Part shown: positions 5,651 to 17,957 of the stretch, in pieces
How positions within the stretch are numbered: the stretch's first letter is position 1
How the letters are laid out: each line of letters opens with the position of its first letter
NCBI RefSeq assembly: GCF_056712565.1
Contig: NZ_CM160072.1
Strand: one strand, 5' to 3'
Length of the DNA stretch: 64,000 bases
The notes under the pieces: generated by a model
What the model was told of the DNA's origin: nothing
Databases searched by the model: none
What the model saw: the letters and a program-made list of their open reading frames with translations, nothing else
Translations under genes and position numbers: made by a program

Positions 5651-5942
5651 TTTTCACCCCTGTCAGTCGTTCCCAGAAGTACGTCAGTGCAACCGAACCC
5701 ATCGCACCACTAATCCCCGCAGTTGCGAGAATCATGTAAATACTGAATCCACTTTCGATACTGATTAGGCCACCAATAACACCGGTGAATCCTGATACAA
5801 CTATCTGAGCGAGGGCATTTATCCAGCTCCACGTTGCTTTACTCTGCTTCACATCAATCAGGTAACGGACAAGCCCCCCCCAACCTGCGATGATCAGCAA
5901 AACAAGCCAGAACGCTCCGGCAAGATTCTCTTTTTCGTGCAT
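5637..5942 (-). CDS. Holin (alternative upstream start at 6041)
   Basis: Small multi-TM protein overlapping the lysozyme start; internal start MHEKENLAGAFWLVLLIIAGWGG... gives ~101 aa with about three TM helices. Confidence 0.55.
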   Translation of the reverse strand: MHEKENLAGAFWLVLLIIAGWGGLVRYLIDVKQSKATWSWINALAQIVVSGFTGVIGGLISIESGFSIYMILATAGISGAMGSVALTYFWERLTGVKNAKS

Positions 5943-6051
5943 ATGAATAGCCGCAGTTTCGCCTCCGACAGAAAATCGGAGCGTGAAATGATATGTTGAT
6001 TTATTATTAATTCGAAAATTACATTCTAATTCATCAGGCATTGATGATTTT

Positions 6052-13129: not shown

Positions 13130-13219
13130 ACAATGTGTACCTCAGGTGTACATATTACATGATTGAAATGAACCTTCAAGATACTTGTACCTTAACGGTA
13201 CAAGGGTTTTAATTTCGTT
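13130..13219. promoter_or_regulatory. Immunity-region operator/promoter between cro-like and cI-like genes
   Basis: Two palindromes sharing a GTAC core: TGTAC-N7-GTACA (13136..13152) and CTTGTACC-N5-GGTACAAG (13184..13204), in a 90-bp AT-rich divergent intergenic region. Confidence 0.55.
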
Positions 13220-13894
13220 ATGAAAACAATCCATGACATCCGGCGGTCTAACGCCAGAAAACTGAGAGATGGTGTTGGCGGGAATTCTTCCTTTGCCACT
13301 ATGATTGATCGCGAGCCAACCCAGACCAGCAGGTTTATGGGAGATGGTGCTACTAAAAATATCGGTGACAGCATGGCACGACACATCGAAAAATGTTTCG
13401 ACCTGCCTGTCGGATGGCTCGATCAAGAACACCAGACAACGAACATCACAAAAAAACCTGATGTTTCAATCACTAATAAACAAATCACATTAGTCCCTGT
13501 CATATCATGGGTACAGGCCGGAGCATGGAAAGAAGTTGGATATTCTGAGGTTGATTTGAGCACAGCAGAAACGTATCCCTGCCCTGTACCCTGTGGGGAA
13601 ATGACTTATATCTTGCGGGTGATAGGTGATTCAATGATTGATGAGTACCGCCCGGGAGACATGATTTTTGTCGATCCTGAAGTACCTGCCTGCCACGGTG
13701 ACGACGTTATTGCATTGATGCACGATACAGGTGAAACCACCTTCAAAAGGTTGATAGAAGATGGGACACAGCGTTATCTCAAAGCGTTAAACCCAAACTG
13801 GCCTGAGCCTTACATTAAGATCAACGGTAATTGCTCTATAATTGGTACTGTGATTTTCTCAGGAAAACCAAGAAGATACAAAATCAAAGCCTAA
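13220..13894 (+). CDS. CI-type repressor with S24 (LexA-like) autopeptidase domain
   Basis: 224 aa; N-terminal HTH region and C-terminal S24 domain with catalytic serine context VIGDSM. Confidence 0.85.
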   Translation: MKTIHDIRRSNARKLRDGVGGNSSFATMIDREPTQTSRFMGDGATKNIGDSMARHIEKCFDLPVGWLDQEHQTTNITKKPDVSITNKQITLVPVISWVQAGAWKEVGYSEVDLSTAETYPCPVPCGEMTYILRVIGDSMIDEYRPGDMIFVDPEVPACHGDDVIALMHDTGETTFKRLIEDGTQRYLKALNPNWPEPYIKINGNCSIIGTVIFSGKPRRYKIKA

Positions 13895-13907
13895 TCAATG
13901 TTTATGA

Positions 13908-13929
13908 ACCTGCTTCGGCAGGTTTTTTT
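13908..13929 (+). terminator. Rho-independent terminator after the repressor gene
   Basis: Stem ACCTGC-TTCG-GCAGGT followed by TTTTTTT. Confidence 0.6.
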
Positions 13930-14046
13930 ATACTTGACAATGTACCTTTGGGATACATAATGTACCCAAGAGAAACAACAAACAGGCAGGACGCCCACGA
14001 AGTAGCCGCCTGGGGCATATGAAGTCCAGGATGATTCGTTAGCAAC

Positions 14047-14075
14047 AAAAAAGCGCCCTATAGGACGCTTCGCTC
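14047..14075 (-). terminator. Terminator hairpin downstream of 14097..14609
   Basis: Minus-strand stem AAGCG-N10-CGCTT followed by a U-rich tract. Confidence 0.4.
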
Positions 14076-14096
14076 TTTAACAATCTGGATGACTTA

Positions 14097-14609
14097 TTAC
14101 TCAGATTTGAACTTTGGTTCTGGCAAAAGAGGAGGAGTTGAGTCCTCGAATCGTAGCCAGTGCTCCCAGATATCGTGGGATTGTAATTCCAGAAGACCAA
14201 TTTGACGTGATGCAACTGCAGTGCCAGCTATAGTTCCTCCTGCATAATCAACCTGGACGGACTTTGACGCTTTCTCAATTAATTCTGTCCAAGCTTCACT
14301 TTCCGCGTTAAAAGAAGCAGTTAATTCCTGCAGACGCTGTGGATCATCCTTGTTGTCTTGTTTCAAACGATTCAGGGCGGCCACCGAATACTTATTCTTA
14401 ACCCAACTAACCTGAGCTAACTGAACTCTCTGACAAGCGTCCATATCAGTAGTTGTTTCCTGAGGCATATCAAAGCAGGAAATAAAAAAAGTCTCAACAC
14501 CATCATTTAGACTACTGCTCGGCTGGTTCAAAGCATCAGAAGCATTGGATGCTATCGGTATTATCAGTGCTACCGACAGAATCAAACGTTTAACATAAAT
14601 CGCTCCCAT
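14097..14609 (-). CDS. Secreted/periplasmic protein with cleavable signal peptide (possible DUF1311/LprI-like)
   Basis: N-terminal KRLILSVALIIPIASNA-SD looks like a Sec signal peptide with an AxA-type site; two cysteines in the mature part; low GC; convergent with the repressor gene. Confidence 0.45.
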   Translation of the reverse strand: MGAIYVKRLILSVALIIPIASNASDALNQPSSSLNDGVETFFISCFDMPQETTTDMDACQRVQLAQVSWVKNKYSVAALNRLKQDNKDDPQRLQELTASFNAESEAWTELIEKASKSVQVDYAGGTIAGTAVASRQIGLLELQSHDIWEHWLRFEDSTPPLLPEPKFKSE

Positions 14610-14896
14610 TTAATTATCCCCTCTAAGAACAGAGTCATCCAGATTAGCCGAATCCTTGTTGTTGGGGAATAACCAGGCCCACCTCGCCTGATGTGGCTAA
14701 AAGCAGGCACATAACAGCTAAGTATTTTCAACCAGAGAGAATCCTTAGCGTTGTGGTGAATGCGGCTCAGCGCACGCGGGTTAAGGTTGAGGCTGACAGT
14801 CGACCTTCTGTGGATACCCACCCGCCTGGTGTGCAACCTTCGCCAGGCACCGGGAGGCACCCGGCACCACAACTTTATGCTGTGTGTAGTCCTGGC

Positions 14897-14940
14897 GGTA
14901 CCAGCTTGTACCCTTGCTTCCGGCTGGTACCGCTCTTTTT
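14897..14940 (+). terminator. Terminator-like hairpin in the noncoding region upstream of the yfdP-like gene
   Basis: Perfect 9-bp stem GGTACCAGC / GCTGGTACC (14897..14905 and 14923..14931) followed by CTCTTTTT; the stem also carries GTAC motifs like the immunity-region operators. Confidence 0.4.
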
Positions 14941-15077
14941 ACAAAACAGAGAAGAGCATCACCGGACGACGGGCTCATAACCCAATCCACCCGGGCGGCT
15001 GCCACCGCAGGTGTTCTTCTCTGTTTTGTGGAGAAACCAACCGACCTTGCAGGGTCGATATGATGAGGAGCAGCAAA

Positions 15078-15440
15078 ATGGCTAGCGAACGCAGTACCAA
15101 CGTGCAGGAATTTATCGGGGAGCTGGACGGCGGCGTATTTGAAACCAAAATCGGCGCAGTTCTCAGTGAAGTCGCTTCCGGTGTGATGAACACGAAAACC
15201 AAAGGTAAGGTCTCGCTCAACCTGGAAATCGAACCGTTTGATGAGAACCGTGTGAAAATAAAACACAAACTCTCATATGTTCGTCCGACTAACCGCGGGA
15301 AAATTTCCGAAGAAGACACCACCGAAACGCCGATGTATGTCAATCGCGGTGGTCGCCTGACTATTCTGCAGGAAGACCAGGGACAATTACTGACTCTTGC
15401 CGGTGAACCTGACGGAAAACTCCGCGCAGCAGGTCATTAA
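15078..15440 (+). CDS. YfdP-like prophage protein
   Basis: ~120 aa starting MASERSTNVQEF..., with GAGGAG RBS 7 nt upstream; directly precedes YfdQ- and YfdR-like genes as in the E. coli CPS-53 prophage. The longer ORF from 14760 is an unlikely extension. Confidence 0.5.
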   Translation: MASERSTNVQEFIGELDGGVFETKIGAVLSEVASGVMNTKTKGKVSLNLEIEPFDENRVKIKHKLSYVRPTNRGKISEEDTTETPMYVNRGGRLTILQEDQGQLLTLAGEPDGKLRAAGH

Positions 15441-15505
15441 TATCGTTCTTAATTAACTGATTATTTATCTCATCACTGAATATCTTTATATAGTGAGGAC
15501 TTATT

Positions 15506-16982: not shown

Positions 16983-17090
16983 AAATCAGCACGTACGAAT
17001 TCAAACTCTGCCATAAAAGAACATATAAGTAATTTATTAACATATAGATATAGGTTATATTACAAATTGAAAAATTATTGGAGAGCAACA

Positions 17091-17957
17091 ATGAATCAAA
17101 ATCCATTCTCATTCTATGACTTTCTTGGATATTTAATACCAGGTGGTTTTTTTATCCTATTAATGTATTTCTGTGGTTTGACATTCGATCTAGATATTGT
17201 TATTGACTTAAGTGAATTGCTCAGAGGTCAAAGTCAAATCTTTGGCATTTTGAACTACGCTTCAATAGTTATTATATCTTATATAGCTGGACATTTTATT
17301 TCTATCACGTCAGCATTTTTTATCGAAAAATACATGAATAAAGAATTAGGATATCCTTCCAAATATCTATTTAAAAAATTGATAGATACCTCAGAAAGCA
17401 TTTGTAGCCCATCATGCGATGAGAGAAGCGCTGATAAAAAAACAAAAATAAAGAATCGCATAATCAAATGCGTATTATGTCCAATAATACTATGGGATTT
17501 TATAACACAAAAACTATGTTATTCTCAATCTCTACCATTTCATTTAGCTAATACAACATGGTTAATGATCAAAGAAGGTTATGAGAAAAAGTTCATAACA
17601 AATCGCCAATTATTACAAGATAAAAACGGACTTGATGATGATCTCTTCAGATTGGCATATCATTATGTTTATGAGTTTTCAAAACAACATCAAACAAAAA
17701 TTCAAAACTATGTTGCATTATATGGTTTTTGCAGAAACATATGTTTAATCTTTATAATTTCATTTTGGGTATCAGTTCCAACCTTTATTTATCGATTATG
17801 TACTCATAGTGATTATCTTTATAGTTTACTTTCAATAATGCTTAGCTTTTTCTTCGTCTATGTTTTCTATGTTGGTTTTGTTAAATTTTATAGAAGATAT
17901 ACTTTAGAAGTATTAATGGCATTTGCTGTACTTCAAAGTAACGACACTATTCGTTAA
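17091..17957 (+). CDS. Integral membrane protein, very low GC (candidate exclusion/abortive-infection moron)
   Basis: ~288 aa from ATG 17091 (RBS GGAGAG); two predicted TM helices at each end with a ~130-aa soluble central region; strongly AT-rich codon usage. Confidence 0.5.
   Translation: MNQNPFSFYDFLGYLIPGGFFILLMYFCGLTFDLDIVIDLSELLRGQSQIFGILNYASIVIISYIAGHFISITSAFFIEKYMNKELGYPSKYLFKKLIDTSESICSPSCDERSADKKTKIKNRIIKCVLCPIILWDFITQKLCYSQSLPFHLANTTWLMIKEGYEKKFITNRQLLQDKNGLDDDLFRLAYHYVYEFSKQHQTKIQNYVALYGFCRNICLIFIISFWVSVPTFIYRLCTHSDYLYSLLSIMLSFFFVYVFYVGFVKFYRRYTLEVLMAFAVLQSNDTIR

Follow-up and report, generated by a model that had tools for sequence, protein, structure and literature searches.

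What does the small gene lying directly beyond the repressor gene of this prophage encode, and what might its product do for the lysogen that carries it? The DNA considered here is a window of 64,000 nucleotides from contig NZ_CM160072.1 (assembly GCF_056712565.1), in whose positions all coordinates are given, and it represents an e14/CPS-53-like lambdoid prophage of a phylogroup-B2-type Escherichia coli. The gene in question, an open reading frame (ORF) at 14097-14609 on the minus strand, encodes WP_000500990.1, which RefSeq names 'hypothetical protein'. It is a real protein-coding gene under purifying selection; its product is, with little doubt on our part, an exported accessory protein of the DUF1311 superfamily; and the best overall explanation, to which we would give a probability of roughly 0.4, is that of a moron-encoded periplasmic inhibitor expressed in the lysogen. 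The features of the gene itself are as follows.

14097-14609, minus strand: coding sequence, 170 amino acids, stop codon included (ORF list; RefSeq WP_000500990.1; dN/dS 0.11-0.21; PHROG 7681 at 1e-120)
14618-14623, minus strand: Shine-Dalgarno sequence GAGGGG, 8 nt 5' of the ATG (read from the sequence)
14541-14609, minus strand: predicted Sec signal peptide MGAIYVKRLILSVALIIPIASNA, codons 1-23, cleaved before the residues SD (n, h and c regions; -3/-1 rule; conservation in the clade)
14154-14480, minus strand: divergent DUF1311/LprI three-helix domain with the Cys45-Cys59 pair, codons 44-152
14115-14144, minus strand: conserved C-terminal motif DSTPPLLPEP, codons 156-165 (alignments; outside the Pfam model)
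14040-14071, minus strand: intrinsic terminator of the gene, a hairpin at 14071-14050 followed by a T-run (terminator scan; lies in the conserved left flank)

The first-pass annotation of this DNA had set the ORF at exactly these coordinates, which we confirm; it lies on the minus strand, and its start codon is ATG. We regard the gene as real because of its Shine-Dalgarno site, its terminator, the occurrence of the exact protein on at least 1000 E. coli contigs, and a dN/dS of 0.11-0.21 at a dS of about 1-1.6 against the orthologues of E. albertii and Klebsiella variicola (65% and 71% identical in amino acid sequence, respectively). The terminator hairpin has 9 pairs, followed by TTTTTTG; it is kept in the YPE12 and O103 loci and, by way of the left flank, is common to other genes found at this site. 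The description of a low-GC gene stands with respect to the window as a whole (43.5%, with 36.8% at third codon positions, against 50.3%), but the gene is no lower than the immunity region around it, at 42-46%. A literature search on the protein accession gave no match.

The product has features that support a Sec-exported, soluble periplasmic protein, as judged from its sequence, and the earlier description of a signal-peptide protein thus holds up well. The N-terminus reads as a classical signal, with an n-region MGAIYVKR, a 12-residue hydrophobic core LILSVALIIPIA and a c-region SNA-SD (the hyphen marking predicted cleavage); it has two basic residues and a helix-breaking proline, and it obeys the -3/-1 rule at SNA-SD. 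There is no lipobox cysteine in the N-terminus, and the core is too short for a membrane anchor. The same layout, built from other residues, is present in every clade member examined (SHA-AD, SIA-SD, LAA-AE, AMA-GD and others), and residues 1-24 are unstructured in the AlphaFold model, with pLDDT below 50. The mature protein would have 147 residues and about 16.5 kDa, and is calculated to be acidic, with a pI of about 4.6.

The guess that this protein is of DUF1311 type, made from the sequence at first reading, has been borne out by profile-profile comparison, by relatives that score above the Pfam threshold and by comparison of folds. A direct search with the hidden Markov model of Pfam LprI/DUF1311 (PF07007) gave a divided answer: the match covers nearly the whole model (positions 8-96 of 106) and relatives pass, but the protein itself stays below the gathering score (17.3 bits, E 0.0062, vs. 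22). The relatives that exceed it are 36-46% identical to WP_000500990.1, namely P0023 (46%, full-length, 33.6 bits), P0024 and P0025. An alignment of the phage-type clade (A4), which excludes every canonical DUF1311 member, was matched by hhalign to the canonical DUF1311 alignment (A5) at a probability of 99.94%, with an E of 6.9e-37 over 117 columns. An earlier profile search had reached 498 matches; since its query included the bona fide DUF1311 protein P0021, these are not independent evidence, and the test was repeated without canonical members. The helical-bundle fold of the solved member 3GI7 (Pseudomonas putida PP0307) is found here as well; that link needed profile-profile and fold comparison because the clade profile, when run against PDB sequences, gave chance matches only and did not find 3GI7.

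By homology and fold, then, the protein belongs to the DUF1311/LprI superfamily as a divergent member, one that falls short of the Pfam threshold and of the canonical pattern of four cysteines in two disulfides, having Cys45 and Cys59 only, which align to the first canonical pair. The C-terminal motif of the clade, W..WL.[FY].DSTPPxLPEP, is strongly conserved and recurs in a large DUF1311 subfamily whose members are canonical in having four cysteines; the segment D[ST][ST]PP is carried by 80 of 148 representative matches. The AlphaFold model adds an N-terminal beta-hairpin (residues 31-43) and a C-terminal strand (164-169). Other libraries add little: PHROGs assigns the protein to phrog_7681, 'unknown function', the sole NCBIfam match is to MADS7 at a meaningless E of 0.1, and the BFVD viral structure library gave no credible match.

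Close homologues number only about 20 and are found in Escherichia and Klebsiella. Those of E. albertii and K. variicola occupy the same position as the gene described here, the K. variicola locus having a different type of repressor (HTH_3 plus Peptidase_S24) and a different promoter-region sequence; across three genera the Shine-Dalgarno site, signal peptide, cysteine pair and C-terminal motif are all intact. A 66% identical homologue, P0013, is chromosomal and lies outside any prophage (locus L008). At 5940-6000 of that locus P0013 retains remnants of the 5' untranslated region of the phage cassette (CTAATCTGAATGGCTC ... CTTAGAAAATG), and these remnants suggest, on sequence likeness, that the gene has been transferred between the prophage and the chromosome, in one direction or the other. 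Relatives in Yersiniaceae are stand-alone genes, and one canonical relative with the LPEP tail lies two genes from an SLT gene. A tblastn search of 50,697 deposited phage genomes gave no match, so that the family was seen in prophages and chromosomes only.

The position of the gene bears on when it could be expressed. As the first-pass annotation had it, the gene is convergent with the repressor gene: it directly follows, and faces, ymfK (13220-13894, plus strand), a cI-like LexA/S24 repressor gene (Peptidase_S24 match at 1.5e-26) that has its own terminator at 13906-13925. Two further elements on the strand opposite to our gene need to be considered.

13934-13961, plus strand: probable early-left promoter (PL-like), TTGACA-16-CATAAT (11/12 promoter match; operator in the spacer)
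14071-14083, plus strand: boxA-like sequence CGCTCTTTAACAA in the transcript running in the PL direction (read from the sequence; conserved in loci with other cargos)

The operator motif TGTAC-N7-RTACA has three sites in the 64 kb, against 0.12 expected: two of these, at 13136-13152 and 13186-13202, form OR between the cro-like and cI-like genes, and the third, TGTACCTTTGGGATACA at 13941-13957, lies inside the spacer of the promoter listed above. In this e14-like prophage that promoter is, as we read it, probably the early-left one (PL/OL), because of the operator in its spacer and because an identical promoter is present in the e14 element of K-12, where ymfJ, which lies in the PL direction, is induced late in the SOS response together with intE, while ymfI on the opposite strand barely responds (PMC11002266). 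The promoter stands just 3' of the repressor terminator and is oriented so as to read into the ORF from its 3' end; the ORF sits downstream of PL on the opposite strand. The boxA-like sequence follows the putative PL start at a distance of about 105 nt, and we take it to fit the boxA consensus of the rrn/nut type; neither a boxB-like hairpin nor an N-like gene was noticed. A leader of about 60 nt, AACAGGCAGGACGCCCACGAAGTAGCCGCCTGGGGCATATGAAGTCCAGGATGATTCG, within 13975-14045 on the plus strand, is nearly invariant just after PL, despite the different repressors and operators of the loci compared. Whether the PL leader (13966-14100) might be a structured RNA of the put/nut kind was also considered, but its fold (z = -0.08) gave this no support.

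A position of this sort had been called typical of lysogenic-conversion genes, and in other lambdoid prophages the place directly after the repressor gene does hold accessory and exclusion genes: bstA of phage BTP1, an accessory gene expressed in the lysogen, follows cI, and the cI-N interval is a mosaic hotspot holding defence genes (PMC8585504). The likeness to bstA, and to the exclusion genes rexAB and sieB in the immunity region of lambda, is one of functional analogy only, and the arrangement is not the same; bstA and rexAB are co-oriented with the repressor, whereas the WP_000500990.1 gene faces it, outside the repressor operon, and lies downstream of PL in antisense orientation.

The second aspect of position is that the gene occupies what appears to be an exchangeable slot, at about 14095-14632, bounded and followed by the elements listed here.

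14082-14094, unstranded: left arm of an inverted repeat, 13 bp, AATCTGGATGACT
14633-14645, unstranded: right arm, 13 bp, AGTCATCCAGATT, a perfect inverted repeat of the left arm
14720-14942, plus strand: STnc100-like structured RNA ending in a terminator hairpin (Rfam RF02076 at E 1e-8; 45.4 bits, just short of the gathering score, 47)

Single-gene cargos of at least five unrelated kinds are found between the same flanks (loci L010-L013 and L015-L134). Besides the DUF1311 gene they include YmfI (in K-12), a protein of the 'ECs1072 family', a coiled-coil and zinc-ribbon family with a variable C-terminus, and a family with two transmembrane helices; nearly all are on the minus strand, antisense to PL, and one short plus-strand ORF is found as well. 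Of 5426 complete E. coli genomes, 1972 have the conserved flanks and 141 the DUF1311 ORF, and between genera the flanks are conserved at 85-94% vs. 73-74% for the ORF. Over 13200-15500 the region is 100% identical to those of S88, APEC O1, ATCC 11775 and others, and the carrier strains include extraintestinal and avian pathogenic E. coli (ExPEC and APEC). Neighbouring genes are the repressor gene and those for YfdP, YfdQ and YfdR. Neither Pfam nor PADLOC gave a significant match to the other slot cargos, the insignificant PADLOC scores being an E of 0.063 for the coiled-coil cargo (to a type I restriction-enzyme model) and about 0.01-0.02 for the membrane cargo ('2TM effector').

The left flank contributes the minus-strand terminator together with the boxA-like CGCTCTTTAACAA. 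The right flank, from about 14646 to 15075, is nearly invariant over some 400 nt in five prophages, and on the plus strand it is much more stably folded than shuffled sequences (z of -6.5, vs. -3.2 on the minus strand). In five inspected genomes (four distinct loci) the RefSeq annotation of this block includes a 'frameshifted hypothetical protein'; we think that the sequence at 14700-15075 is more likely to be a structured RNA than a pseudogene. Imperfect inverted repeats of about 20 bp, with the consensus AATCTGGATATCCCCAACAAC, accompany other cargos (L012, L020, L022, L028 and others), and a further tandem copy of this motif lies in the right flank. The repeats bounding the slot may be recombination sites, protein-binding sites or the two sides of an RNA stem. 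That they mark an invertible segment was rejected, as the cargos with credible ORFs all have the same orientation in 49 loci; a target-site duplication beside them was unconvincing, being at most 3 bp (AAC) and absent for the DUF1311 cassette.

As one part of the overall explanation given at the outset, the gene is best regarded as a single-gene accessory cassette, or moron, in a swappable slot beside the repressor gene. Of the marks of a moron, its own terminator and a variable presence (141 of the 1972 flank-bearing genomes) were seen, while the scan found no promoter. Candidates sought by eye upstream of the ORF, a TTGAAA without a -10 element and a GCTAAT without a -35 element, were weak and were set aside.

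How might such a cassette work? Once the 23-residue Sec signal had been removed, the product would be a soluble periplasmic protein with a divergent DUF1311/LprI helical core, one disulfide pair and the DSTPPLLPEP tail. Its transcription would run opposite to that of the early-left operon, from a presumed start in the conserved right flank to the terminator in the left flank, and a cargo read in this way from its own start could therefore be produced with PL still shut by the repressor; after induction, its transcription would meet convergent antisense transcription from PL. In the periplasm the protein may, by analogy with its family, bind and then block or tune a peptidoglycan enzyme of the glycosidase type. 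The candidate targets are a lysozyme-like or lytic-transglycosylase effector of a type VI secretion system (T6SS) or the cell-wall-piercing enzyme of a superinfecting phage, and in either case the lysogen would be protected. That the protein does inhibit an incoming muramidase, whether of lysozyme or transglycosylase type, is for us a tentative proposal, at somewhat less than even odds.

Several lines of published work lie behind the analogy, among them that on the defence genes beside cI mentioned above. DUF1311/LprI proteins with signal peptides serve as cognate or orphan immunity proteins against peptidoglycan-targeting T6SS effectors (Etsi4, PMC12981562; also PMC9796082, PMC8867033 and PMC12135965); they resemble WP_000500990.1 in their signal peptide, are proven or predicted neutralisers of cell-wall effectors acting in the periplasm, and exist also as orphan copies; WP_000500990.1 might conceivably have an orphan T6SS immunity role. 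In phage T4 the phage's own protein Spackle inhibits a tail lysozyme in the periplasm (PMC7677548); the likeness is one of function only, and Spackle is not among the top structural matches of WP_000500990.1.

A number of observations weigh against a periplasmic inhibitor made in the lysogen. No sigma-70-like promoter upstream of the ORF passed the minus-strand scan, and expression in the lysogen can therefore only be presumed. The second canonical cysteine pair is missing throughout the phage-type clade, and the loss of this disulfide may have altered the surface with which the protein binds. No effector or T6SS gene was found among the neighbours, the subfamily with the LPEP tail consists of stand-alone chromosomal genes that likewise have no T6SS neighbours, and BLASTP against Etsi4, which itself has no LPEP tail, detected no similarity (E 1.8). 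The defence models of PADLOC-DB v2 gave no match at E up to 0.1. Finally, ScwA of Salmonella, a periplasmic LprI-domain protein and the one studied best among enterobacterial DUF1311 proteins, gave no protection against lysozyme, and the LprI of Mycobacterium tuberculosis, which gave the Pfam family its name and has the DUF1311 domain in common with our protein, carries a separate MliC domain (PMC7933661).

Among the alternatives, the DUF1311 fold may be no guide to function at all, but a generic helical scaffold used here to bind something other than a peptidoglycan enzyme, such as a small ligand, a client of a periplasmic chaperone, or a component of phage reception or injection, in which case the family label would be uninformative. 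The great divergence of the clade, with its sub-threshold Pfam score, lost disulfide and extra modelled hairpin and strand, is what one would point to in its favour, as is the occurrence of DUF1311 proteins in many unrelated contexts; all functional reports that we found for DUF1311, however, involve cell-wall enzymes, and we think this alternative rather unlikely.

Still a little less likely, in our view, is that the protein acts as ScwA does, making peptidoglycan hydrolases of the host, such as MltD or Slt, more or less abundant or stable and hence affecting envelope homeostasis, beta-lactam tolerance or virulence. ScwA (SL1344_0490) is periplasmic, enterobacterial, horizontally acquired and low in GC (43%), has a disulfide-stabilised LprI domain and controls MltD levels; a P. 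aeruginosa transposon mutant in a YecT/DUF1311 gene is depleted under cefepime, and so sensitised to a beta-lactam; and both the SLT gene close to the LPEP-tail relative and the ExPEC and APEC carrier strains would fit. On the other side, ScwA (compared here by description) is a chromosomal protein of 275 amino acids with two disulfides and a different architecture, and the other cargos of the slot, although uncharacterised, resemble genes of phage conflict and not envelope regulators.

That the protein guards against the prophage's own lysis, either by buffering GH24 endolysin leaked into the periplasm of the lysogen or by tuning the timing of lysis, we hold to be very improbable. The same prophage does encode a GH24 endolysin, a holin and a lysis protein, and the presumed silencing of the cargo by antisense PL transcription after induction would suit a guard confined to the lysogen; yet the same lysis cassette occurs with other cargos, or with none of DUF1311 type, in the slot, relatives of the protein exist outside prophages, and repressed prophages do not transcribe their endolysin genes. 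A silent passenger, kept solely by the recombination of its conserved flanks and with no useful expression, would account for the lack of a recognisable promoter and for flanks that are better conserved than the ORF, but it is hardly credible in view of the purifying selection noted above and of a Shine-Dalgarno site, signal peptide, cysteine pair and C-terminal motif that are intact in three genera.

The periplasmic inhibitor of an incoming enzyme remains the explanation that we prefer, and it needs to be set apart from several better-known systems. Canonical DUF1311/LprI proteins (PF07007; COG YecT; 3GI7) differ from WP_000500990.1 in the points of score, second disulfide and modelled N-terminal beta-hairpin described above, as well as in its carriage by a prophage. 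M. tuberculosis LprI is a lysozyme-inhibiting lipoprotein with an MliC domain, whereas WP_000500990.1 has neither a lipobox nor a match to MliC; LprI was its sole Pfam match, no other domain (MliC included) appearing even at E up to 10, and so none of the lysozyme-inhibitor domains MliC, PliC or Ivy is found in it. It is accordingly not an LprI-type lipoprotein, an MliC inhibitor, a demonstrable T6SS immunity gene product or a member of a PADLOC defence family. For WP_000500990.1, 'lysozyme inhibitor' is a family label only, one that by analogy ScwA contradicts, and we would caution against transferring this Pfam-derived label. What can be said, from comparisons of sequence, is that a 'hypothetical protein' of PHROG 7681 can now be placed as a probable divergent, exported DUF1311/LprI protein, and that the poorly understood DUF1311 family gains a prophage-borne example at a position typical of conflict genes expressed in the lysogen.

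What is more unusual about the locus is the cassette slot itself, in its sharing of flanks and repeats, although its general location is already known as a hotspot. With at least five unrelated and uncharacterised cargos, and with flanks present in about one third of complete E. coli genomes, it should be a handy place in which to seek new small defence or exclusion proteins. One may go further and speculate that e14/CPS-53-like prophages have here an undescribed site for exchangeable cassettes, placed antisense in the early-left leader and consisting of a terminator in the flank, a presumed fixed start signal, bounding repeats (of the AATCTGGATATCCCCAACAAC type, or here AATCTGGATGACT at both ends) and the boxA-like and STnc100-like neighbours; recombination or RNA pairing at the repeats would swap modules of conflict, the DUF1311 cargo being a periplasmic muramidase blocker directed against superinfecting phages or lysozyme-like T6SS effectors. 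We think this unlikely as a whole, and no dedicated mechanism for the exchange of cargos could be demonstrated.

Two further observations may be added. In the window analysed here, an ORF at 17067-17957 on the plus strand, between yfdR and the excisionase and integrase genes, encodes 288-296 amino acids with several hydrophobic segments, has a very low GC content (27-29%), gave no Pfam match and carries the RefSeq label 'hypothetical'; by its looks it is another foreign accessory gene. The E. albertii locus has a different gene (DUF4760), which borders the integrase gene on its outer side and so falls beyond the prophage.
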